A stretch of DNA of 64,000 nucleotides from an uncultured Chitinophaga sp. (GTDB taxonomy: Bacteria > Bacteroidota > Bacteroidia > Chitinophagales > LD1), in the NCBI GenBank assembly GCA_964493695.1, contig CAZBPG010000001.1:71645-135644 (forward strand), in the 5' to 3' direction. Shown here piece after piece: positions 11,969 through 53,685 of this stretch. Below the pieces are notes generated by a model that did no database searches, had not been told where the DNA came from, and was given only the letters and a program-made list of their open reading frames with translations. The position numbers and the translations under genes were made by a program. The first letter of the stretch is position 1; each line of letters opens with the position of its first letter.

Positions 11969-13156
11969 TTATTCTTTTATCGTACCAAGATTCATTTTAT
12001 CGGTAGCCGAAATGCTGTCAATTCGCGCTACTTCCCCGTTGGGAAACTGCACATGATAATCGGTCCATCCCGGTGTGCCTGCCCGCGAATCGGCTTTGTA
12101 GTAATCGGTTGAAATAATCTGGGCACCGCTTTCAAAAGCGTTGTTCATGTCGGTGTAATCACCGCTTCTGGCTTCGTTGGTTCCGGCATCGGCACGGGTT
12201 CTTACAATGTATCCCTGCCGAACACGATTTTGAATTTGTGTTACCTGAGAAGGGTTATTCATAACTACGAAAGCAGCTTCGGGGGTACCGGGCGAAGAGT
12301 AAACAAACATGGCTCTTCCCTGCAAAGACGGATGACCGGATTTGTAGAGCGATTCAGCCGGACCCTGCATAATGAACACAACTTTGTTTCTGGCTTCGGC
12401 CAAAGTTGGCCAGTTGCCTGCCAGTGCAGCGACTTCGAGCGTAGCGTACGAGCCGCGAACCTTGTCCGGTGTAATAACTTTGTTCAGCGCATCGCCAAAA
12501 ATTGATTTTATCTCTTCGTCCATTTTGTCGCAGGCATCTGCGTCAAAAGGAATAGAGAGCGTCATGTCGGGAAGAGAAGGAAGTGCATCGCCCACCGTTT
12601 CATCTTTTGTTTCGATGTTGATGAAGATGGGAAGGTGGTTCGGGTGCGAAACGCTCCAGTTGTGAACGGCTGTAAGGGCTTCTTTAAACGTAAAGTAGTG
12701 GGTATTAAAATCGAAGTCGGGAATGTGAATGATTTTGAAACCCGGTTGCTTCAATGCCTCTACATGCGAGTCGTTCGACAAGCCCACCATGGACATTCCC
12801 TGACGGTAATAGAAATGTCCGCCTGCGGGGTCATTGTAAAAATCAAGTTCAAGACCGCGAACATTATAATCGCTCATCTGCTGCTCAACCGGTAAGTGGG
12901 TATAGTCAATTCCCGCAGGGTCGTATTGTGCCGGAAGCAAACCGAGGGCCATTGCCTGTGTCATCCAGTTAAAAATACTGTCGTCCGGTTTCAGATGATA
13001 ACTGTTGTGGCTGGCAATAATCTGAATCTGGTTCAGTTTTAAGCTATCGGTAGGCCCGTTGTCGTAAACAACAGGAATGTTTTTTTCTTTGGTTTCTTTT
13101 TTACAGGAAGCAGTCATCAACAGGCAAACGGCAAACGGCAGGACATAACGTTTCAT
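11969..13156 (-). CDS. PI-PLC X-domain-like phosphodiesterase lipoprotein (phosphoinositide/glycerophospholipid phospholipase C-like)
   Basis: 395 aa with a lipoprotein-type signal (LMTASC). The catalytic-His context IIASHNSYH and the TIM-barrel-like spacing are as in bacterial Ca-dependent PI-PLC-like proteins. Confidence 0.6.
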   Translation of the reverse strand: MKRYVLPFAVCLLMTASCKKETKEKNIPVVYDNGPTDSLKLNQIQIIASHNSYHLKPDDSIFNWMTQAMALGLLPAQYDPAGIDYTHLPVEQQMSDYNVRGLELDFYNDPAGGHFYYRQGMSMVGLSNDSHVEALKQPGFKIIHIPDFDFNTHYFTFKEALTAVHNWSVSHPNHLPIFINIETKDETVGDALPSLPDMTLSIPFDADACDKMDEEIKSIFGDALNKVITPDKVRGSYATLEVAALAGNWPTLAEARNKVVFIMQGPAESLYKSGHPSLQGRAMFVYSSPGTPEAAFVVMNNPSQVTQIQNRVRQGYIVRTRADAGTNEARSGDYTDMNNAFESGAQIISTDYYKADSRAGTPGWTDYHVQFPNGEVARIDSISATDKMNLGTIKE

Positions 13157-15732: not shown

Positions 15733-16128
15733 CTATTGTTTTATCTGCCCTTTAAAAAATGAATTACCCTGTGCGTTCAGCAGGTTCACATATTCTTTTC
15801 CGTCTTTCTGAAAGAGCACATAACCGGTGCTGTCGCCCAGGTAGTAGTTACCGGAGATAAACTCCCTTCCGTTGATGAGCCACATAATGTTACCCGACAG
15901 CGGCACGTTCACTTTCGGGGCAGTTTTGCTTTCGAAAAGATTGTTGAACAGCTTTACGTTTCTTCCGTCTAAACTCATGCTTCCGCCTTTGCCCTGATAC
16001 ATCACTATATCCATGCTTGTAGTAGAATCGCGCATGGTGAGGTAGGTTTTTGCGGGAAGCGGTTGCTGTGCTTTGCAAAAGGCAAAAAGCAAAAGGCAAA
16101 AGGCAAAAGTGAAATGCAGTTTCTTCAT
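15733..16128 (-). CDS. Small secreted protein of unknown function
   Basis: 131 aa with a signal peptide MKKLHFTFAFCLLLFAFCKA, whose h-region is encoded by the (CTTTTGC)n heptamer run. Confidence 0.5.
   Translation of the reverse strand: MKKLHFTFAFCLLLFAFCKAQQPLPAKTYLTMRDSTTSMDIVMYQGKGGSMSLDGRNVKLFNNLFESKTAPKVNVPLSGNIMWLINGREFISGNYYLGDSTGYVLFQKDGKEYVNLLNAQGNSFFKGQIKQ
16075..16109. repeat. Tandem heptamer (GCAAAAG)x5, equal to (CTTTTGC)n on the coding strand
   Basis: Read directly: gcaaaag gcaaaaa gcaaaag gcaaaag gcaaaag. It encodes FTFAFCLLLFAFC of the 15733-16128 signal peptide. Confidence 0.9.
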
Positions 16129-18544: not shown

Positions 18545-18860
18545 CAGACCTGTCAGCGGCTTTCCGCCTTAGCGGGAAAGGTCATACAGGTCTGCAGGGA
18601 TGATACCGGAATTCCGCTATATACCTTTCAGGTCTGGTAATGGCTGTCCGCTAACGCGGGAAGAGTCATGCAGGTCTGGAGGGATGATACCGGCATAGCG
18701 GTATAAACCCGACAGGTCAGACGGGATGATAGCGGAATCCCGCTATAAACCATACAGGTCTGGTAGCGGCTGTCCGCTAAAGCGGGGAGGCTCATACAGG
18801 TCTGCAGGGATGATAGCAGAATGCCGCTATAAGCCCGTTTGGTCTGTAAACAGGTACCTT
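18545..18860. repeat. 42-bp tandem array, about 7.5 units, with two alternating hairpin-containing unit types
   Basis: CAGGTCTG-like unit starts occur at 18545, 18587, 18629, 18671, 18713, 18755, 18797 and 18839, spaced exactly 42 nt apart. Confidence 0.9.
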
Positions 18861-22006: not shown

Positions 22007-23533
22007 ATGCGCAAAAAAATAAAGTCAGCTCTCATCTCCGTTTATTATAAAGATAAACTCGACCTCATTGTAAAAGAACTCGCTAAGCTCGGGGTGAAAA
22101 TTTACAGCACCGGTGGCACTCAAAGTTTTATTGAAGGGCTTGGTGTAAAAGTAACTGCGGTAGAAGACCTTACTTCTTATCCATCTATTTTAGGCGGGAG
22201 AGTAAAAACCCTTCACCCGAAAGTTTTCGGAGGCATTTTAGGAAGAAGAGATAACGCCAGCGACCAAAAAGAAATGGCGCAATACGAAATTCCTGAAATT
22301 GATTTGGTGATTGTTGACCTCTATCCGTTTGAAGAAACGGTGAAAGGCGGAGGAAGTGAAGAAGATATTATTGAGAAGATTGACATTGGCGGAATTTCGC
22401 TCATCCGTGCGGCAGCAAAAAACTTCAACGACACTATTATTGTTTCTACCCGCAACGATTACGAATCGCTTTTAGAATTACTGCAAACAAAAAATGGCGA
22501 AAGCGATTTAGAAGACCGTAAAAAGTTTGCCGCCAAAGCCTTCATGAACTCTTCGCATTACGATACGCTTATCTTTAATTACTTCAATAACGAATTCAAA
22601 TTCGAAGTTTTCAAAAGGAGCGAACTGAATGCAAAGGTGCTTCGCTATGGCGAGAACCCTCACCAACGCGGAGTGTTCTACGGCAATCTTGATGAGATTT
22701 TTGAAATACTAAACGGCAAAGAACTTTCTTACAACAATCTGGTAGATGTAGATGCTTCTATAAATCTCGTAGCTGAATTTTCTGAACCGACTATTGCCAT
22801 CATCAAACACACCAACAGCTGCGGGCTTGCTTCGCGCGAAACTATTGCGGAAGCCTACAAGGCCGCTTTTGCCTGCGATACTACTTCGGCATTTGGTGGT
22901 GTAATTGCCTCTAACCGCAAAATTGATTTGGCAACCGCCAACGAAATGAATTCCCTTTTCTTCGAAGTACTCACTGCACCCGGTTATGATGATGATGCGT
23001 TGGCCGTTTTAAAAAGTAAGAAGAACAGAATTATTATCAGACAACGGACAACGGACAACGGACAACAGAAAATACAGTTCAAAAATTTGCTGAATGGAGT
23101 ATTGACACAAGATGTTGATTCTAAAGCGGAAGGCAAAAGCGAATTCAAAGTAGCTACTGCAAAAGCCCCAGCCGCTACAGAAGTTTCTGATTTAGAGTTT
23201 GCCGTAATTGCCGTTAAGCATTTAAAGAGCAACGGTATTGCGCTCGTAAAAAACAAACAACTCATCGGCAGTAACTGCGGGCAAACATCGCGTGTAGATG
23301 CTTTGCAAAATGCAGTCCGCAAAGCAAAAGAGTTCGGTTTCGATTTAACCGGTGCCGTAATGGCAAGCGATGCCTTCTTCCCTTTTCCCGATTGCGTGCA
23401 GATTTCGCACGAAGCGGGAATAACCGCCATCGCGCAACCGGGTGGCAGTATCAAAGACCAGGACTCCATAGATGCCGCCAACAAAAACAACCAGGCCATG
23501 GTAATGACTGGTGTTAGGCACTTTAAGCACTAA
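22007..23533 (+). CDS. purH: Bifunctional AICAR transformylase / IMP cyclohydrolase
   Basis: 508 aa with an MGS-like N-terminal domain (ALISVYYKDKL...STGGT) and an AICARFT domain ending VMTGVRHFKH. Confidence 0.97.
   Translation: MRKKIKSALISVYYKDKLDLIVKELAKLGVKIYSTGGTQSFIEGLGVKVTAVEDLTSYPSILGGRVKTLHPKVFGGILGRRDNASDQKEMAQYEIPEIDLVIVDLYPFEETVKGGGSEEDIIEKIDIGGISLIRAAAKNFNDTIIVSTRNDYESLLELLQTKNGESDLEDRKKFAAKAFMNSSHYDTLIFNYFNNEFKFEVFKRSELNAKVLRYGENPHQRGVFYGNLDEIFEILNGKELSYNNLVDVDASINLVAEFSEPTIAIIKHTNSCGLASRETIAEAYKAAFACDTTSAFGGVIASNRKIDLATANEMNSLFFEVLTAPGYDDDALAVLKSKKNRIIIRQRTTDNGQQKIQFKNLLNGVLTQDVDSKAEGKSEFKVATAKAPAATEVSDLEFAVIAVKHLKSNGIALVKNKQLIGSNCGQTSRVDALQNAVRKAKEFGFDLTGAVMASDAFFPFPDCVQISHEAGITAIAQPGGSIKDQDSIDAANKNNQAMVMTGVRHFKH
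23038..23072. repeat. Tandem heptamer (CGGACAA)x4-5 inside purH
   Basis: cagacaa cggacaa cggacaa cggacaa cagaaaa, translated as RQRTTDNGQQK. Confidence 0.85.
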
Positions 23534-32230: not shown

Positions 32231-33352
32231 ATGGCAGGCATCTATATTCATATCCCTTTTTGTAAGCAGGCCTGCCATTATTGCAATTTCTATTTCAGCA
32301 CTTCGCTGGGCAATAAAGACAAATTCGTTCAGGCATTGCTGAAAGAAATTGGGTTGAGCAAAGATTACTTAGCGGGCGAAAAAATAGAAACCCTCTATTT
32401 GGGTGGAGGAACACCTTCGCAGTTAAGCATTCAAGATTTAAGGTTGATTACAGATAAACTTCACCTGTATTACGATTTAAGTCAACTGAAAGAATTTACA
32501 ATTGAAACCAATCCTGATGATTTGAAAGAGGAGAAAGGCATTAAAGGAATAGGAACGTTAGGAGTGGACCGTTTTTCCATCGGCATTCAATCTTTTTTTG
32601 ATGAAGATTTAAAATACATGAACCGCGCGCATAATTCCGATGAAGCACTTTCCTCGGTTAAAAGAGTGCAGGATGCCGGTTTTGAAAACATCACGATTGA
32701 TTTAATTTATGGAACTCCCACCATGAATGATGAGAAATGGAAGCAGAACCTTGCCACAGCCTTTTCATTGAACGTTCCGCATATTTCTTCTTACGCTTTA
32801 ACCGTTGAGTCAAAAACATCTTTAGAGAAGAAAATTGCAAAAGGAGAATCGAAACAGGTTGACGAAGAACAATCTGCAAGGCAATTCAAGATGCTGATGA
32901 ACGAAATGCGCATACATGGTTTTGAGCAGTATGAGATTTCAAATTTTGCGCGGAATGGGAAACATGCTGTCCATAATTCCAACTACTGGTTTGGTAAAAA
33001 GTATCTGGGGCTTGGCCCTTCGGCACATTCCTTTAACGGAGTTTCAAGGCGATGGAATGTTTCAAATAATCTGAACTATATCAACAGCATCAACGAAGGC
33101 AAAATTCTTTTTGAGGAAGAGGTGTTGACTGAAGCACAAAAAGTGAATGAGAAAATTATGACTTCACTTCGTACGCAATGGGGCTTAGATATTGCGGAAT
33201 GTGGAACGCGGAACGCGGAATTAATTCAAGAGGGCTCAAAAGAAATTGACCCCACACATTATACGCTTGAAAGCGGAGTTCTTAAATTGACTGACGAAGG
33301 AAAATTGTTTGCCGATTCTATTGCTGCTGCGCTTTTTGTCGAAGAGCAGTAA
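32231..33352 (+). CDS. hemW: Radical SAM heme chaperone HemW (oxygen-independent coproporphyrinogen oxidase-like)
   Basis: 373 aa with CxxxCxxC (CKQACHYC) at the N-terminus and a HemN_C-like tail. Confidence 0.9.
   Translation: MAGIYIHIPFCKQACHYCNFYFSTSLGNKDKFVQALLKEIGLSKDYLAGEKIETLYLGGGTPSQLSIQDLRLITDKLHLYYDLSQLKEFTIETNPDDLKEEKGIKGIGTLGVDRFSIGIQSFFDEDLKYMNRAHNSDEALSSVKRVQDAGFENITIDLIYGTPTMNDEKWKQNLATAFSLNVPHISSYALTVESKTSLEKKIAKGESKQVDEEQSARQFKMLMNEMRIHGFEQYEISNFARNGKHAVHNSNYWFGKKYLGLGPSAHSFNGVSRRWNVSNNLNYINSINEGKILFEEEVLTEAQKVNEKIMTSLRTQWGLDIAECGTRNAELIQEGSKEIDPTHYTLESGVLKLTDEGKLFADSIAAALFVEEQ
33191..33226. repeat. Tandem heptamer (GCGGAAY/GTGGAAC)x4 inside hemW
   Basis: attgcggaat gtggaac gcggaac gcggaat taat, translated as IAECGTRNAELI. 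Confidence 0.75.
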
Positions 33353-33982
33353 TTACTTCCATTCAAATGTTTTCAGCATTTGTTTTACATCGGCTTTTAC
33401 ATAATCAAGCACCGGTGCCATACTGTCGGCATTGGGTGAACTGTAAAAATAAAGTGCTCCGCGAATAAAATGACGATTGCTATCGGTTAGGAAAAACTGA
33501 ACATTACTGGCTGCGTCTCCGCCCAAATCGTAAAGTATCCCGCCAACACCATGTGCGTTATCAATTTTAATCTCGTCAATGTAGTTTGCTTTTTTGGTGT
33601 GCTTAAAAGCCATCTTGTGTGCGTCTTCCACTAAGTGCTCCAGCCTCATCGTATCATTAATGTCCTTGTAAGTAAGATTTACCACTCCGTTAAGCGATGG
33701 GAAGTAAACATTCAGCCAGCATTGGTCGCTTCTCAGTTTGTTTCCAAAATAGGTGGTATCGCGTGATACTTCCGTGTAAACGGGTTTCTCAAATTTAAAC
33801 GGACATTCCTTCGGGTCGTACAATTCATATTTTCTCTCCGGAAAAATTACCCGCGGATATGCCTTTTGTTTGGGAGTGTAATCACCATGACAAGAAGGAA
33901 GGATAACAGATAATAGACAACAGACAACAGACAAAATCCATTTCTGATTTCTGATTTCTGATTTCTGATTTCTAACTCTCAT
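33353..33982 (-). CDS. gldD: Gliding motility lipoprotein GldD
   Basis: 209 aa with a lipobox (LPSC). It shows conserved GldD blocks (YPRV.FPE..Y, LTYK, DAHKM.F.H..KA, FFLTDS..HF.RGALYFY..PN.DS..P) and lies immediately downstream of gldE. Confidence 0.8.
   Translation of the reverse strand: MRVRNQKSEIRNQKWILSVVCCLLSVILPSCHGDYTPKQKAYPRVIFPERKYELYDPKECPFKFEKPVYTEVSRDTTYFGNKLRSDQCWLNVYFPSLNGVVNLTYKDINDTMRLEHLVEDAHKMAFKHTKKANYIDEIKIDNAHGVGGILYDLGGDAASNVQFFLTDSNRHFIRGALYFYSSPNADSMAPVLDYVKADVKQMLKTFEWK
33902..33974. repeat. Two-armed heptamer element at the gldE/gldD junction
   Basis: On the plus strand, (ACAGAYA)x4 at 33902-33935 and (ATTTCTG)x5 at 33940-33974. The arms are about 5/7 complementary per unit. 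Confidence 0.9.
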
Positions 33983-38862: not shown

Positions 38863-39186
38863 ATGAACTTGATTGAACTACATAGAAAGGAAATAGAGGC
38901 GCTGTGTGAAAAGCACAAAGTAGATTCATTGGATTTAGTGGGTTCTTTTGCAAAGGGAACATCTAACAGCGAAAGTGATGTTGACTTTCTGGTAACGTTT
39001 GGCGATGTTGATTTGTATCAATATGCCGACAATTATTTTGACTTTATTACTTCTATGGAAACTCTTTTCAATAGAAAAGTTGATTTGATTTCCGAAAAAG
39101 CGATTGACAACCCGTATTTATTGAAATCATTCAACCGTAACCGCGTCAAAATCTATGAGCGAAGAAATCCTCGTTTGGCTGCATGA
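38863..39186 (+). CDS. Nucleotidyltransferase-domain antitoxin (MntA-like)
   Basis: 107 aa with the minimal NTase motif GSFAKGT..SESDVDFLV. It overlaps the downstream HepT-like gene. Confidence 0.85.
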   Translation: MNLIELHRKEIEALCEKHKVDSLDLVGSFAKGTSNSESDVDFLVTFGDVDLYQYADNYFDFITSMETLFNRKVDLISEKAIDNPYLLKSFNRNRVKIYERRNPRLAA

Positions 39187-39502
39187 CATTCGCAAACAGG
39201 TTTTGCAGATTGATGAGTTTTATGCCACCACACAAAAATCTTTCGAAGAATTTCAGAAAAACACCATGCTCCGCAAAGCCATTGAGCGGAATCTGGAAAT
39301 CGCAGCAGAAGCGCTAAACAGAATTTTAGAAAAGGAACCGGATTTCCCTATTTCCAACGCAAGAAAAATCATCGGCTTCCGTAACCGGTTAGCACACGAA
39401 TATGACCGGCTGGATGACGAAACTGTTTACAGTGTTTCCGTTAAGTATCTTCCGGAACTCCTGAAAGAAGTTTCTGCAATTCTTGATAAAAATAAACCAT
39501 GA
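39155..39502 (+). CDS. HepT-like (DUF86) HEPN toxin
   Basis: 115 aa with the Rx4HxY HEPN motif (RNRLAHEY). It overlaps the MNT gene by 32 nt. Confidence 0.85.
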   Translation: MSEEILVWLHDIRKQVLQIDEFYATTQKSFEEFQKNTMLRKAIERNLEIAAEALNRILEKEPDFPISNARKIIGFRNRLAHEYDRLDDETVYSVSVKYLPELLKEVSAILDKNKP

Positions 39503-39766: not shown

Positions 39767-41407
39767 ATGAAGATTGCCCTTGCCCAGTTAAATTATCACG
39801 TAGGAAATTTTGAGGCGAACACGCAGAAAATAATTGCTGCTATCCGCCATGCCGAAAAGCAAAATGCAGAGCTGGTAGTCTTCAGCGAGCTTTGCATCTG
39901 CGGTTATCCTTCCCGCGATTTTTTAGAGTTTGATGATTTCATTAACCAGTGCACAAATGCTTTGAGGGAAATCGCAAAGCACACAGGTAAAGTTGCTGTG
40001 CTCGTTGGTTGCCCTCGTAAAAACCCGGTGAAAGAGGGCAAGGATTTGTTCAACGCTGCATTCTTTCTGTATGAAGGCGAAGTAAAACACATCACCGATA
40101 AAACATTGCTGCCGGTTTACGATGTGTTTGATGAATACCGGTATTTTGAACCGAACAGGAAATTTGAAGTAGTCAGCTTCAAAGGCAAAAAATTAGCCCT
40201 TACCATTTGCGAAGATATCTGGAACGTAGGCAACGACAATCCGCTCTATACCATCTGCCCGATGGATGAATTGATAAAGCAGTCACCGGATATGATTATT
40301 AATCTTTCTGCTTCGCCTTTCAGTTATGTTCAACACGAAGAGCGGATGAAAGTAATCCGCGCCAATGTAGCCCGGTATAAAATTCCGATGGCCTACGTAA
40401 ACCAGGTAGGCGCACAAACCGAATTAATTTTTGACGGAGGAAGTGTAGTGGTGAATGAGAAGGGAGAAGTAGTTGAGCAATTGAAGTTTTTTGAAGAAGA
40501 AATCAGGATTGCGGATTGCGGATTTTCGATTTCGGATTTAGAATTCGAATGCACCAATCCGCAATCCGCAATTTCGCTGATTCACTCCGGATTAGTTCTC
40601 GGCATCCGCGATTACTTCGCCAAGCTCGGTTTTAAAAAAGCAATCCTCGGTTTAAGCGGGGGAATAGATTCTGCTTTGGTTCTCTGTTTGGCAGCCGAAG
40701 CATTAGGAAAAGAGAATGTCATGTCGCTCCTTCTTCCATCCGGTTTTTCATCTGACCATTCTATAGCCGATTCAAAACAACTTTGCGAAAATCTGGGAAC
40801 GAAATACGAAACAGTCCCTATCGAAAATAATTTTCAGGCTTTTATACAAACGCTGAATCCGTTTTTCAAAGACCTTCCGTTCAATGTAGCGGAAGAAAAT
40901 CTACAGGCGCGCGTGCGCGGGGTTTTGCTCATGGCTTTCAGCAATAAATTCGGGTACATTTTGCTCAACACTACCAACAAGAGCGAAGCAGCTGTTGGCT
41001 ACGGAACTTTGTATGGCGATATGTGCGGAGGGTTGGCTGTGTTGGGCGATGTTTACAAAACACAGGTGTATGAACTCGCCAATTACATTAACCGGAACGG
41101 TGAAGTGATTCCCCGGAATATTATTTCAAAGCCCCCGTCCGCGGAGCTTCGCCCCAACCAAAAAGATTCCGATTCGTTGCCTGAGTATGATGTGTTGGAC
41201 AAGGTGCTCTACCAATACATCGAAAAACGCCAGGGCCCCAAAGAACTGACCGCAATGGGTTTTGAAAAAAAATTAGTTGACCGGGTGTTGAAAATGGTTA
41301 ACGGCAGCGAATGGAAACGTTTTCAAACACCGCCCATTCTTCGCGTTTCTCCAAAGGCATTCGGCATGGGGCGCAGAATGAACATTGAAGGGAAGTATCT
41401 CGGTTAA
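39767..41407 (+). CDS. nadE: Glutamine-dependent NAD+ synthetase
   Basis: 546 aa with an N-terminal nitrilase/CN-hydrolase domain and a C-terminal synthetase domain with an SGGIDS P-loop. The linker carries an in-frame palindromic repeat. Confidence 0.95.
   Translation: MKIALAQLNYHVGNFEANTQKIIAAIRHAEKQNAELVVFSELCICGYPSRDFLEFDDFINQCTNALREIAKHTGKVAVLVGCPRKNPVKEGKDLFNAAFFLYEGEVKHITDKTLLPVYDVFDEYRYFEPNRKFEVVSFKGKKLALTICEDIWNVGNDNPLYTICPMDELIKQSPDMIINLSASPFSYVQHEERMKVIRANVARYKIPMAYVNQVGAQTELIFDGGSVVVNEKGEVVEQLKFFEEEIRIADCGFSISDLEFECTNPQSAISLIHSGLVLGIRDYFAKLGFKKAILGLSGGIDSALVLCLAAEALGKENVMSLLLPSGFSSDHSIADSKQLCENLGTKYETVPIENNFQAFIQTLNPFFKDLPFNVAEENLQARVRGVLLMAFSNKFGYILLNTTNKSEAAVGYGTLYGDMCGGLAVLGDVYKTQVYELANYINRNGEVIPRNIISKPPSAELRPNQKDSDSLPEYDVLDKVLYQYIEKRQGPKELTAMGFEKKLVDRVLKMVNGSEWKRFQTPPILRVSPKAFGMGRRMNIEGKYLG
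40506..40576. repeat. Two-armed heptamer palindrome in-frame inside nadE
   Basis: (GGATTNC)x5, then GAATTC, then (AATCCGC)x2-3. A perfect 17-bp stem forms between attgcggattgcggatt (40508-24) and aatccgcaatccgcaat (40556-72). Confidence 0.9.
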
Positions 41408-48247: not shown

Positions 48248-48324
48248 GAGAAGGGACGAAGGACGAGGGCGAGGGAAGAGGATACGGCTGCTACCCTCGT
48301 CACCCGTCCCTCGCTCTCGTCCCT
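48248..48324. repeat. Two-armed heptamer palindrome (GAGGGAC-type / CCCTCGY-type) in a divergent intergenic region
   Basis: gagaagggacgaaggacgagggcgagggaagagg ... ccctcgtcacccgtccctcgctctcgtccct. The arms are imperfectly complementary. Confidence 0.85.
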
Positions 48325-48401
48325 TTTTCAATTAGACAATATTTCTAAACGTGTTGAGAGCAACGAACCCCTGCTCAATTCAATTCTTATTTTTGACCGG
48401 T

Positions 48402-49073: not shown

Positions 49074-51043
49074 TGAGAGAACGACCATCGACCATTGACC
49101 ATCGGCAAGGCAAACAAGTAAATTTTGCACGCCCGGCAAGGGCGGGTGTTATTTTTATATGGTTAATCGTCTTTGGTCAGTCGTCCTTTGCTCAGCCTAA
49201 AGAAACTCCGCTCATTACGTTCCGCCAAAAACTGCTCCGCGAAAAGCATAACGATAACGTGGAGAAAATAGATTCGTTTGCTAAGCTTCACTTAATGATT
49301 GCCGGCAACATCTACCAAACCGAAAAACATGCGGCTTACGCGTATGATAAAGCCACCGGTAAATACGATTACAAAAGCGAGTTAAAATACATCCAGCCGA
49401 TACTCAACCTGGGCGATGTTACCATTGCCAATCTCAAAACCTCTTTCAGCAACAGCACAAAAAACATGTTCTCCTCGCCCGATGAATTCGGGCTGGCACT
49501 GAAATATTCCGGAGTAAATGTGGCGCTCCATGCCAACGTGCATACTGCCAACATCAGCAAGGCCAATTTAAAACGCACACACGAAGTGCTTGATGGATAT
49601 GATGTTTATCACACCGGTGCTTTCATGGATAACATTCAGCGCAACGGCAACTATCCGCTTATCGTCAACAAAAAGGGTTTTCGGATTGCCGTGCTCAATT
49701 ACACCAACCTCACTTCGCGCCCTTCCGTTTCGCGCGATTTTGTCATCAACGAAATTGACAAAACCACTATTGATAAGGATATGCGCCTCACACACGCCTA
49801 CAAACCGGATTTTACCATCGTTTATTTCGACTGGGGCGCGAACATGCAGGACATTCCCTCCTATGCTCAACAGGAATTGGCGCAATACGTTTTTCAAGCT
49901 GGAGCCAACTTAGTGGTGGGCACACACCCCAATACCCCGATGCGCATTGATATGATGAACTACAGTTATAATGGCGAACTGCGCGAGGGCATCATTGCTT
50001 ATTCTCTCGGAAACCTCATCAGCAGCAACGAAGAAATACGCAACCGCAACGGCTATGTGATTGATATGGAGATTCAGAAAAACAATTTTACCACCGAAAC
50101 CCGTGTAAGCGATTGGGGGGTGATACCCGTTTATAATTATTACGATACTACTTCCGTACGCGGAAAAACCAGCCTGTTCGTTGTGCCTTGCGCTAACGTA
50201 GAAAGCGGAGATATTTTGCCCAACCTCGCATACATTGAAAAGCGAAGGGCAGTGAATAGTGCGTATGAAGTGCGAAAACTGCTGGGCAACGTAGCCGATG
50301 AAATTCAATACAACCTGAACGAACTGATTGTAAACAATGTGGAGGAAAGCATAAATATTACCAATGCTTCGCTTAACAACAAATACAATCCAAAGCGCGA
50401 AGAAGAAGTAAGCCCAAGCGATGCACCCGAACTGCCGGTAGCAACTACCGGCTCTGATAATCCCCCTTCACTGGCATTGCTTTACGAACAACCTGCAGAA
50501 ACAAAAACCACCACACCGGTTGTTACAAAAGCGGAAAAGAAAAGCGAAAAAGAAACCTCGTATTTAACTCAACGGAAAAAAGCAGAGGCGGTTATGGAAG
50601 CGCCAATAATTCCCAAAGAGCCGGTTGCTGAAATTTCAACGGAAAAAGTTTCGGAAAGCGATAACCCAAAAGAGGAAGTGTTAAACCCGAAAGCAAGCAG
50701 TGTGGAAGTTTCTTCGCATGAGGCAACAAAAATTTCCACCGGTGCAAATGGCGGCCTCACAGGAAATGTAGAAATGACCAAGGCAAAAAATTTGGAGTTA
50801 CAGGTTGATACGTTTTACCGCATTCAGTTCTATGCGCTTAAAACTTTTATCCCGCTGGATACTAATTACTATACCCACCTGAAAGGTTACGAGGTGCGGG
50901 TAGAAGAGGGTTTATATAAATACATGCTGGGCATGTACAGAAGTTTTAAGGAGTGTGAAACATACTGGAAAAGCCAGATACAGCCGCGCTACAAACAAAG
51001 CTTTATAGTTAAATTTATCGATGGAAAAAGAGTGGTAAGATGA
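49073..51043 (+). CDS. CapA-family (PGA_cap metallophosphatase-like) protein fused to a C-terminal SPOR domain
   Basis: About 656 aa. The CapA-like region spans roughly residues 60-400, followed by a low-complexity Pro/Glu/Lys linker and a SPOR-like end (FYRIQFYALK...YKYMLGMYRSFKECE). Confidence 0.7.
   Translation: MRERPSTIDHRQGKQVNFARPARAGVIFIWLIVFGQSSFAQPKETPLITFRQKLLREKHNDNVEKIDSFAKLHLMIAGNIYQTEKHAAYAYDKATGKYDYKSELKYIQPILNLGDVTIANLKTSFSNSTKNMFSSPDEFGLALKYSGVNVALHANVHTANISKANLKRTHEVLDGYDVYHTGAFMDNIQRNGNYPLIVNKKGFRIAVLNYTNLTSRPSVSRDFVINEIDKTTIDKDMRLTHAYKPDFTIVYFDWGANMQDIPSYAQQELAQYVFQAGANLVVGTHPNTPMRIDMMNYSYNGELREGIIAYSLGNLISSNEEIRNRNGYVIDMEIQKNNFTTETRVSDWGVIPVYNYYDTTSVRGKTSLFVVPCANVESGDILPNLAYIEKRRAVNSAYEVRKLLGNVADEIQYNLNELIVNNVEESINITNASLNNKYNPKREEEVSPSDAPELPVATTGSDNPPSLALLYEQPAETKTTTPVVTKAEKKSEKETSYLTQRKKAEAVMEAPIIPKEPVAEISTEKVSESDNPKEEVLNPKASSVEVSSHEATKISTGANGGLTGNVEMTKAKNLELQVDTFYRIQFYALKTFIPLDTNYYTHLKGYEVRVEEGLYKYMLGMYRSFKECETYWKSQIQPRYKQSFIVKFIDGKRVVR
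49082..49186. repeat. Two-armed heptamer element at the start of the CapA-SPOR gene
   Basis: (CGACCAT)x3 at 49082-49104. The second arm atggtta atcgtct ttggtca gtcgtcc at 49159-49186 is about 5-6/7 complementary per unit. Confidence 0.7.
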
Positions 51044-51756: not shown

Positions 51757-53081
51757 AAAAACAAGTTGGCAGTTGGCAGTTAGCGGTTGGCAGAGTAATC
51801 GCCCTTGTTGTGTGTCTTTTGCTGCTCGATAGTCAACTCTCAATAGGCCAGGCATCTTCTCCATATTCCCGGTTTGGCCTGGGCTATATTCACTCTCCGG
51901 TTTTTTCGGGCAATAAAGCCATGGGCGAGGTGGCAGCCCCTTACGCCAGCGGAGCAAACATCAATTTCGCCAATCCGGCTTCGTATGCTTCGCTTACGCG
52001 CACTACTATCGAAATTGGAATGAATGTAGAAGGCGCAAAAATCTATGCGCGGGATTCCAACTACACCGCTACACAGGCAGGCATTAACCATTTTGCGCTG
52101 GCTTTTGTGCCTGCGCCTAAGCGAAATAACTATGCTATCAGCATCGGCTTGCTTCCTTACTCGCACATCAACTATACCTTCATTCAGAATTTTAATGACT
52201 CTGCACTTGGCCCGTTTCGTCAGATATACGGTGGCAAGGGTTCTTTGTACCAGGTGTATGCAGGCGGTGCTTATAAAGTGAAAGGTTTTTCTATCGGTGC
52301 AAATCTCGGATTCCTCTTCGGTAAGTTAGATTATCAAAAGACCATCACTTTCCCTGATTCGCTTTATGCAAACACCACGCGTAACATCACCAGCATGAAT
52401 GTGAAAAGTTTTGTTTACACGGTTGGCGTACAATATCAGCGGCTGATTTTTCACAGCAGTAACGACCCCGATGCGCGGACAGATATCTTCATGACTCTGG
52501 GGGCTTATGGTTCGGGCGGAATGAAAATGCAGGCAAAACTTTCCAACTATTGGGACCGGTACACTATTGACCCTCTGCTGGGAGTTCTGGCAGATACGGT
52601 AGCGGCTAATTTCAATCAAAAAGCAAGCGTGAATCTTCCATTTAACATCGGGGCCGGTGTAATGTTCGGCAACGAACGCTACTGGATGCTGGGAACCGAC
52701 TTCAAGTTTATGAACTGGGAAAAGTATTCTTCTCCGTTGAACAACGGCAATTTGAGCAATAGCTGGAGAATTTCGTTTGGCGGACAGATAACACCGAAGT
52801 TTGATGAAGTAGACAAGAAAAAGTATTTAAGCAAAGTGCAGTACCGTGCCGGAGTTTATTATGGCAAAAGCGAAGTTAATTTCAATGGAAACCAGTTGAG
52901 TGAAGTGGGCGGAACTATAGGATTAGGATTTCCGTTTAAATCAGTGGCCCGCTTAAACCTTACCGGTGATTTTGGTTCGCGTGGCGGAAGCGATAAAACA
53001 ACTATCCGCGAAACCTATTATCGCATTACCTTCGGCTTTGTGTTAAACGATATCTGGTTTATCAAACGCAAATTCGATTAA
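51753..53081 (+). CDS. Outer membrane beta-barrel protein of unknown function (conserved coaX-lptC neighbourhood)
   Basis: 442 aa with a signal-like N-terminus, Gly/aromatic-rich beta-strand periodicity and a C-terminal KRKFD. Confidence 0.5.
   Translation: MKKQVGSWQLAVGRVIALVVCLLLLDSQLSIGQASSPYSRFGLGYIHSPVFSGNKAMGEVAAPYASGANINFANPASYASLTRTTIEIGMNVEGAKIYARDSNYTATQAGINHFALAFVPAPKRNNYAISIGLLPYSHINYTFIQNFNDSALGPFRQIYGGKGSLYQVYAGGAYKVKGFSIGANLGFLFGKLDYQKTITFPDSLYANTTRNITSMNVKSFVYTVGVQYQRLIFHSSNDPDARTDIFMTLGAYGSGGMKMQAKLSNYWDRYTIDPLLGVLADTVAANFNQKASVNLPFNIGAGVMFGNERYWMLGTDFKFMNWEKYSSPLNNGNLSNSWRISFGGQITPKFDEVDKKKYLSKVQYRAGVYYGKSEVNFNGNQLSEVGGTIGLGFPFKSVARLNLTGDFGSRGGSDKTTIRETYYRITFGFVLNDIWFIKRKFD
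51765..51792. repeat. Tandem heptamer (GTTGGCA)x4 at the coaX / OMP gene junction
   Basis: gttggca gttggca gttagcg gttggca, translated as VGSWQLAVGR. Confidence 0.9.
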
Positions 53082-53082
53082 G

Positions 53083-53685
53083 GTGAAAGCCCAAAGCTCA
53101 AAGCCCAAAGCCCAAATAAAACCCGTTTCGCGTTTTTTATTTTGCTTTTGCCTTTTGCCTTTTGCGCTTTGCCTTTTACTCTCCTCCTGCAAAAACTCTC
53201 TTGAAGAAGCCAGGCTGATTGTATCGCGCGCTAACGTGAATATTGAAAAGGGCAAAGATGTAGAAATCAATTATTCGGATAATGGGGTGGTGCGCATTAA
53301 AGCATCGGGCCCTACGGCTACCCGGTTTAATTCCGAAAAACCTTACCTCGAATTTTCGGACGGCATAAAGATTCTCTTTTACAATGCTGCTCACCAAATA
53401 GAAAGCACGCTCACCGCAAAACATGCTACTGCGGTAGAAAACAGCCATTCCATGACGGCCCGCGACAGTGTGGTGGTGGTAAACGACAAAGGCGATGTAT
53501 TGAACACGGATGAGTTGATTTGGGATGAGGAGAAAAAAATAATTTACAGCAACTCGTTTGTAAAAATCTCTACTGACGATGAAATTATTTACGGTAACGG
53601 CATGATTGCCAACGAAAATTTTTCCGACTACACCATTAAGCACATTACCGGAAAGATTAAAGTGAAAACAAGTGAGCTGGAGTAG
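53083..53685 (+). CDS. lptC: LptC-like LPS export periplasmic protein (lipoprotein form)
   Basis: 200 aa with a lipobox (LSSC) and OstA/LptC-like beta-jellyroll repeats (LEFSDGIKILFYN...DELIWDEEKKIIYSNSFVKI). Confidence 0.65.
   Translation: MKAQSSKPKAQIKPVSRFLFCFCLLPFALCLLLSSCKNSLEEARLIVSRANVNIEKGKDVEINYSDNGVVRIKASGPTATRFNSEKPYLEFSDGIKILFYNAAHQIESTLTAKHATAVENSHSMTARDSVVVVNDKGDVLNTDELIWDEEKKIIYSNSFVKISTDDEIIYGNGMIANENFSDYTIKHITGKIKVKTSELE
53086..53177. repeat. Two-armed heptamer element at the OMP / lptC-like junction
   Basis: (AAAGCCC)x4 at 53086-53120 and (TTTTGCC)x5 at 53140-53177. Confidence 0.9.

Follow-up and report, generated by a model that had tools for sequence, protein, structure and literature searches.

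A palindromic heptanucleotide-repeat tract in the interdomain linker of NAD+ synthetase: a probable coding simple-sequence repeat

We analyzed a stretch of 64,000 nucleotides (64 kb; hereafter the window) from an uncultured Chitinophaga sp., contig CAZBPG010000001.1, in which nadE, the gene for glutamine-dependent NAD+ synthetase, contains a palindromic tract of 7-nt repeats between the regions encoding its two domains. The tract is probably (with a probability of about 0.72) a coding heptanucleotide simple-sequence repeat of quasi-palindromic form, located in an unconstrained, disordered linker of NadE and originating by slippage and template switching. Alignments with orthologues show that it takes the place of an ordinary linker of equal length and adds no length to the protein. 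This statistically striking feature of nadE can be explained in ordinary terms, as an oddity of genome evolution and one of many 7-nt repeat tracts in this genome rather than as a mobile element that was inserted.

Results

Structure of the nadE tract

The open reading frame (ORF) of nadE occupies positions 39767–41407 on the + strand, stop codon included, and encodes 546 amino acids. In the protein, Pfam places a CN_hydrolase domain at residues 2–251 and an NAD_synthase domain at residues 276–519, and the best solved relative is the Acinetobacter NadE (PDB 5kha, E 2e-126 over residues 2–540). Read directly, positions 40506–40576 are GGATTGC GGATTGC GGATTTT CGATTTC GGATTTA GAATTC GAATGCACC AATCCGC AATCCGC AATTTCG. 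This tract is in frame and encodes residues 247–270. Its left heptamer array (GGATTGC GGATTGC GGATTTT CGATTTC GGATTTA, 40506–40539, + strand) was detected by Tandem Repeats Finder (TRF) with period 7, 4.9 copies and 81% matches, and encodes RIADCGFSISDL. The right array, (CAATCCG)x2.6 at 40555–40572 (+ strand; TRF period 7, 2.6 copies, 100% matches), is an inverted copy of the left units and encodes NPQSAI. The exact heptamer cores are 40506–40524 and 40555–40572. They contain a perfect 17-bp inverted repeat, whose left arm ATTGCGGATTGCGGATT (40508–40524, exact match on the + strand) and right arm AATCCGCAATCCGCAAT (40556–40572, matched exactly on the − strand and separated from the left arm by 31 nt) are each exactly (GGATTGC)x2.4.

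The whole palindrome is larger than this stem and larger than previously described. In RNA and DNA folds, the quasi-palindrome spans 40501–40582 (+ strand), with about 32 paired positions and a centre near 40540, and appears as an inverted repeat with 31-nt arms that are 81% complementary. An outer 6-bp stem pairs AATCAG (40501–40506) with CTGATT (40577–40582). An inner stem-loop, TTCGGATT-TAG-AATTCGAA at 40531–40549 (+ strand), includes the GAATTC; in the minimum-free-energy structure its 8 bp join 40531–40538 to 40542–40549. Neither distinct termini nor a duplicated flank is visible at the tract, which is one palindrome throughout.

The tract is real and far beyond chance. The RNA fold of the 83-nt segment 40500–40582 reached −41.4 kcal/mol, compared with −19.1 ± 2.9 for shuffled sequences (z −7.7), and its DNA fold reached −27.7 kcal/mol (z −7.1); in both cases, 0 of 200 shuffles were as good. 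When up to three mismatches were allowed, the arm pattern matched four times in the window, all at the nadE locus, against 0.30 expected, and none of 100 shuffles reached four matches. No Rfam family matched the tract at gathering score, the sub-threshold matches to miRNA precursors reflecting only a generic hairpin, and no gathering-level Rfam match was obtained anywhere in the window. No terminator-like site or tail was found at the palindrome. The stem is preceded, 13 nt upstream, by a T-run (TTTTTTG). A programmed −1 frameshift at this run was considered and rejected, because the run corresponds to conserved FF-E codons that are also present in orthologues without any hairpin.

The position of the tract in the protein was examined with an AlphaFold model of NadE built on 72 orthologues. 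In the model, residues 245–250 form the last strand of the hydrolase domain, residues 251–267 are coil and the first synthetase helix begins at residue 268. Confidence is low in the core of the linker, residues 253–264 (codons at 40523–40558, + strand), where the predicted local distance difference test score is below 50. The model thus places the tract at a structurally permissive site between two well-modelled domains. These results agree with most of what the first-pass annotation, made from the letters of the window, had reported: its transcription of 40506–40576 matches exactly, its 17-bp stem is fully complementary, its call of an NAD+ synthetase gene is borne out by both domains and the 5kha match, the tract stays open and translated within the 546-aa ORF, and its location in the interdomain linker fits both the Pfam boundaries and the modelled coil.

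Comparison with NadE orthologues

The same annotation had regarded about 20–23 residues encoded by the tract as a repeat-derived peptide inserted into NadE. We compared the protein with its 120 best homologues (75–89% identical, 524–558 aa; the closest 89%), among which the linker segment is hypervariable in sequence, not in length. The peptide is repeat-derived and, in its sequence, lineage-specific. The insertion did not stand, since the linker length lies within the orthologue range. The spacing from the invariant F242 to G279 is 37 residues here and 30–46 residues, with a mode of 34, in the 120 orthologues. Similarly, the spacing between the FDG and GLSGG anchors is 73 residues here versus 69–77 in genome loci of Saprospiraceae, Haliscomenobacter, Portibacter and other Chitinophagales, including Chitinophaga. 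Furthermore, the solved NadE structures of Acinetobacter (5kha) and Burkholderia (PDB 4f4h) align across the site with a single 1-residue insertion or deletion. Because the orthologue, anchor and PDB spacings all match, there is no lineage-specific insertion of 20–23 residues, and an in-frame insertion at this site was ruled out. The comparison thus gave the very outcome by which the first-pass annotation had proposed to refute its reading.

A different segment of NadE does vary in length among relatives. A 14-residue in-frame insertion (ALRAPSPKGEGNTTP) is found in a loop near window residue ~443 in L083 (11323–11364; P0011) and also in P0031, P0034 and P0103. Its DNA has a perfect 8-bp palindrome, CCTTCTCC-TAAA-GGAGAAGG, which is absent from the window and occurred in one copy among the relatives' loci obtained. 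This insertion is closer to an event of the kind that produces Rickettsia palindromic elements (RPEs) than the linker tract is.

Turnover of heptamer units in related nadE linkers

In a scan of one genome per species, which gave 80 nadE loci, period-7 arrays were absent from 59; the closest relatives had them, as did a few further lineages. All 10 close relatives for which DNA was obtained have period-7 arrays in the nadE linker, and in several of them this array is the sole or nearly the sole one in 5–21 kb. The period-7 match fraction of the linker was 0.43–0.61 in this clade versus 0.13–0.34 in 33 of 34 more distant loci, the exception being L006 with 0.44. Within the scanned nadE neighbourhoods, the density of arrays was 6.6 per 10 kb in L059, 4.4 in L076 and 1.8 in L014, most Chitinophagales and Saprospiraceae loci having none. 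This patchy distribution suggests a lineage-specific mutational or repair trait.

The sequence of the units was then compared between the window and four relatives (L081, L083, L206 and L001), among which NadE outside the linker is 88–91% identical. In four of these five, the linker is 36–38 aa long. The units are GGATTGC / CAATCCG in the window; ATTGCGG, followed by AAATTCG / AAATCCG, in L081; ATTGCGG in L083, where exactly 21 nt (three units) are missing; (AGTCCGA)x4.4 in L206; and GAAATTC / AAAACTC in L001. L081 and L083 have an (ATTGCGG)x2 left arm in common with the window. At the same site, some relatives have direct arrays only, namely CAATTAC and GCAATCC in L204 and a dominant (CAATCAT)x4.6 in L003. 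The fold z-score of the linker was −5.6 in the window and −0.2 to −2.0 in the relatives; lineages without heptamers ranged from −2.5 to +1.8, with most values near 0. A conserved hairpin, or covariation of the arms across relatives, was therefore rejected, the strong fold being confined to the window. The clade has the periodicity and the site in common, not the structure. Across a Chitinophagales-like clade, the nadE linker has held heptamer arrays of nearly constant length, with units that turn over much faster than the protein.

Period-7 arrays across the window

We scanned the 64 kb with TRF and with a count of exact arrays. Period 7 accounted for 17 of 39 TRF rows. Twelve exact period-7 arrays were counted, against 0–3 for each of the other periods from 4 to 12; the expectation under a first-order Markov model was 0.05, and the maximum in 200 simulations was 1. 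Nearly every array has its own unit (GGCAAAC, GCAAAAG, GACAACG, GCGGAAC, AACAGAC, ATTTCTG, AGGGACG, CGACCAT, AGTTGGC, AAAGCCC, TTTTGCC, AAAGTTA and TCTTGTG). The lineage makes period-7 arrays genome-wide.

Of the 12 exact arrays, nine lie within ORFs and in frame, five of them N-terminal (signal peptide or tail) and four in internal loops or linkers. Within ORFs, the arrays occur only in weakly constrained segments, namely signal peptides, N-terminal tails, loops and linkers. In purH, (GACAACG)x3.9 at 23040–23066 (+ strand, in frame) encodes residues 345–354, RQRTTDNGQQ, in a variable loop; this array adds no net insertion relative to PDB 4ehi and 3zzm, whose loop length matches. An in-frame (GCGGAAC)x3.9 at 33194–33220 (+ strand) lies near the C-terminus of a radical-SAM HemN/HemW-like protein. 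In the GldD lipoprotein, the n- and h-region of the signal peptide, MRVRNQKSEIRNQKWILSVVCCLLSVILPSC, is encoded in frame by two arrays, (AGAAATC)x5 and (TTGTCTG)x4, at 33905–33973 (− strand).

Other N-terminal in-frame heptamer arrays were located at 16075–16109 (−), 13123–13140 (−), 51764–51793 (+) and 49082–49104 (+). In a small secreted protein, (CTTTTGC)x5 encodes the N-terminal sequence MKKLHFTFAFCLLLFAFC, and the heptamer-encoded signal peptide of a PI-PLC lipoprotein reads MKRYVLPFAVCLL. Similarly, heptamers encode the N-terminus of a membrane protein, MKKQVGSWQLAVGRV, and an N-terminal stretch of a PGA_cap protein, MRERPSTIDHRQ. These N-terminal arrays may neutrally fill stretches under low constraint, or they may be tracts for the phase variation of surface proteins.

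Paired arrays that fold into hairpins, with unrelated units, occur in at least three further modules of the window. Arrays of AGGGACG and CGTCCCT form an intergenic hairpin at 48248–48328, detected by TRF, with an RNA fold of −43.3 kcal/mol (z −4.5). In a second intergenic module, at 53082–53180, (AAAGCCC)x4.4 and (TTTTGCC)x5.6 flank a small stem, after which comes a T-run (TRF; RNA fold z −3.0). The third, at 49078–49198, is a CGACCAT array with a degenerate inverse in an N-terminal coding region (fold z −2.2).

Two further features of the window were observed. At 38863–39502 (+), just upstream of nadE, an MntA-like nucleotidyltransferase and a HepT-like RNase form a toxin-antitoxin pair between the genes of an M42 peptidase and a pterin-4a dehydratase. 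Because these two flanking genes directly adjoin in L081, L083 and L206, the pair is a lineage-specific insertion. In addition, a gap between two ORFs contains a tandem repeat of period 126 at 18586–18815 (1.8 copies, 84% matches), with an internal 42-nt periodicity and no Rfam match.

Copies and related arrays outside nadE

A search of the window that allowed up to three mismatches gave no second copy of the nadE tract, and TRF detected no GGATTGC array outside nadE in the relatives' loci (~115 kb). Exact ATTGCGGATTGCGGATT occurs in at least 120 metagenome contigs (L084–L203), whose GC content ranges from 37 to 73%, and therefore in many different organisms. The metagenome (ATTGCGG)n arrays have 3–7 units, and in 33 of the at least 120 contigs an inverted partner array lies within 250 nt. 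Modules of 60–190 nt of the form (GGATTGC)n-loop-(GCAATCC)n are present in many unrelated contigs. An open-frame test of coding or intergenic status was uninformative in high-GC contigs; the long ORFs flanking 14 paired modules were used instead, and about half of these modules fill the spacer between two long ORFs almost exactly.

An all-against-all BLAST of the 120 contigs revealed no common flanks or termini of the kind seen in MITEs (miniature transposable elements with inverted repeats); similarity was restricted to the arrays, apart from one orthologous pair. Three contigs (L124, L125 and L171) have an identical order of variant units with different flanks. The 120 contigs listed contain ~105 further period-7 arrays with 66 other units, and nadE is in none of them. 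These results show that (GGATTGC)n hairpin modules are common in the intergenic DNA of unrelated bacteria. The nadE tract exemplifies this structural class inside a gene and is no copy from a flank-defined family.

Discussion

The nadE tract has the properties of a heptanucleotide repeat, with head-to-tail 7-nt units, an excess of period 7, and variation of unit and copy number between relatives. Heptamer repeats are over-represented in bacteria and change quickly between close relatives (PMC4679880, PMC4692102), and replication slippage or unequal exchange has already been proposed for the bacterial heptamer excess in a 2007 survey, as it is cited in those papers (PMC4679880, PMC4692102). We infer that slippage or unequal exchange of 7-nt units would likewise create the nadE arrays and drive their turnover. 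The gene being essential, the only changes to survive would be those that keep the frame, in 21-nt (7-aa) steps, or that are compensated, and net growth would be removed by selection on the length of the linker. The perfect arms would result from intrastrand template switching between imperfect inverted repeats, that is, from quasi-palindrome correction. The encoded peptide would be a mere spacer, and the hairpin a by-product unwound by translating ribosomes. The palindrome itself is probably neutral.

Several points weigh against this explanation. The main weakness is that ~60 nt are fully replaced at constant length between the window and L206, whose NadE is 91% identical; simple slippage offers no obvious source for such a replacement. 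Single 7-nt slips would frameshift an essential gene, so that three-unit events or conversion-like replacement must be assumed. Moreover, at least 120 metagenome contigs carry (ATTGCGG)n arrays, frequently in inverted pairs, which hints at a process more specific than neutral slippage. The search for copies spans 64 kb of the source genome, and a dispersed (GGATTGC)n family elsewhere in that genome is possible.

The hairpin might itself be selected: it might make translation pause at the domain boundary and so assist co-translational folding, act in mRNA processing or stability, or offer a binding platform to a protein with a 7-nt footprint. Its very stable fold (z −7.7) lies exactly at the domain boundary, and the linkers of relatives also tend toward weakly negative fold z-scores (−0.2 to −2.0) compared with those without heptamers (−2.5 to +1.8). 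Similar modules precisely fill intergenic spacers in other bacteria, others occur in the window, and cold-shock proteins bind heptamer repeats with one protein per unit (PMC4679880). Nevertheless, we consider a selected hairpin unlikely: the strong hairpin was seen in this genome alone, L204 and L003 carry direct arrays only, and neither an Rfam family nor a terminator-like tail accompanies it. Transposition of a small mobile palindromic element, RPE-, MITE- or repetitive extragenic palindrome (REP)-like, into nadE in frame, where a surface site tolerated it, is less likely still. Speaking for it are the palindromic, translated tract in a permissive linker, the 60–190-nt modules of the same unit in many unrelated metagenome contigs, and the same order of variant units between different flanks in L124, L125 and L171. 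Yet there is no net insertion against 120 orthologues and two solved structures, and no other copy in the 64 kb or, outside nadE, in ~115 kb of close relatives, which have other units at the same site and length. Outside the arrays, the metagenome modules have neither flanks nor termini in common, nadE is in none of the 120 contigs listed, and the size and make-up of the tract differ from those of ~150-bp RPEs, which have a conserved peptide in each family.

A contingency tract for phase variation, in which a one-unit slip switches off the synthetase domain or a −1 shift yields a stand-alone glutaminase domain, is very improbable. Such switching classically relies on coding simple-sequence repeats, and the arrays in the signal peptides of the window's surface proteins could plausibly work in this way; in addition, TTTTTTG is found 13 nt before the stem. 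However, nadE and purH are housekeeping genes with short arrays (2.6–4.9 units), the sole length difference among the relatives is a frame-preserving 21 nt, and the FF-E codons behind the T-run are conserved in orthologues that lack the hairpin. We give almost no credence to an artefact of assembly or amplification, such as a chimeric inverted repeat. The source is apparently a metagenome-assembled contig and its closest relatives are all uncultured metagenome-assembled genomes, but the ORF is intact and of normal length, and independent assemblies of relatives have related arrays at the site, including the (ATTGCGG)x2 left arm of L081 and L083. Heptamer-array hairpin modules might instead be a distinct, actively generated class of elements across phyla, in which a 7-nt-periodic process writes mirrored arrays at unchanged length into any unconstrained DNA, be it an intergenic spacer, a signal peptide or the linker of an essential enzyme. 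This is also unlikely; we keep it in view because of the ~60-nt replacement at constant length, the at least three further modules in the window and the at least 120 metagenome contigs, 33 with paired arrays. Under such a process, templated copying may keep the arms complementary, or a protein with a 7-nt footprint may use the arrays as platforms, and the nadE linker may be a long-lived "landing pad" whose unit is repeatedly rewritten.

The nadE tract shows that what looks like an in-frame "insertion" can be linker DNA of the ordinary kind that a lineage-specific repeat process has overwritten; insertion and overwriting are separable only by orthologue comparison. These Chitinophagales-like genomes tolerate 7-nt, non-triplet repeats in essential genes where a spacer or a hydrophobic stretch suffices, and whole signal peptides are written in heptamers in these genomes. 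Heptamers are the most over-represented simple repeats of bacteria (PMC4679880, PMC4692102). The nadE linker offers a natural time series of how arrays turn over while length stays fixed and selectable, and the origin of heptamer arrays could be measured with it. The repeat also marks the NadE linker as sequence-indifferent, which is of use in annotation and protein engineering. The wider pattern is of note as well: site-stable coding arrays with fast unit turnover at fixed length, heptamer signal peptides, and hairpin modules across phyla.

Comparison with known systems

In quasi-palindrome template switching, an imperfect inverted repeat is made perfect when the nascent strand copies the other arm; this is reportedly described by the Ripley model and by E. 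coli work of the Lovett laboratory on quasi-palindrome template-switch mutagenesis. It would explain the exact (GGATTGC)x2.4 arms here versus the imperfect arms in relatives. It is, however, a mutational mechanism, not an element family, and is only inferred for nadE. Non-triplet simple-sequence repeats in ORFs are also a feature of contingency loci, an example being the CTCTT units that lie in the signal-peptide region of opa genes in Neisseria, and the signal-peptide arrays of the window are similar in position. Unlike them, nadE is a housekeeping gene with short arrays and with no frame-shifting variants among the relatives compared. REPs are a conserved extragenic sequence family mobilised by RAYT (Y1) transposases. 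Like REPs and BIMEs, the nadE tract is a short hairpin-forming repeat, and the metagenomic (GGATTGC)n modules fill intergenic spacers; unlike them, the nadE module lies within a gene and occurred a single time in the sequence examined, with no other copy in 64 kb, no search for a RAYT gene having been made. The named cyanobacterial STRR units are STRR1 CCCCAGT, STRR2 TTGGTCA and STRR3 CAACAGT; these are matched neither by GGATTGC/GCAATCC nor by any other unit of the window.

RPEs, to which the first-pass annotation had likened the tract, are dispersed multi-copy families of ~150 bp that add a conserved peptide (PMC10969869). The likeness holds in that the tract is palindromic, hairpin-forming repeat DNA translated in frame in a housekeeping protein at a fold-compatible, permissive site. 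It fails on family membership, net insertion and copy number, because the tract is 71–82 nt, adds no length, has no second copy in the sequence examined and is built of 7-nt units that differ between close relatives.

Known heptamer repeats comprise the cyanobacterial STRR sequences, TAACTGA in Beggiatoaceae, Cyanobacteria and five Bacteroidetes (PMC4679880), and GGGAATC in Xanthomonas and Nostoc (PMC4692102). The arrays described here differ from them in that the units of the window are locus-specific, with no dominant heptamer and with 9 of 12 exact arrays in frame in ORFs, and in that the nadE tract, situated in frame and centrally in an essential enzyme of two domains, is mirrored so as to give a perfect 17-bp stem. 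They resemble them in having head-to-tail 7-nt units in 2–6 copies, an excess of period 7 and a patchy phylogenetic distribution, in lying near ORF boundaries or at the protein periphery, and in differing strongly in length and sequence between close relatives at orthologous positions. Bacterial heptanucleotide simple-sequence repeats are the closest known class.

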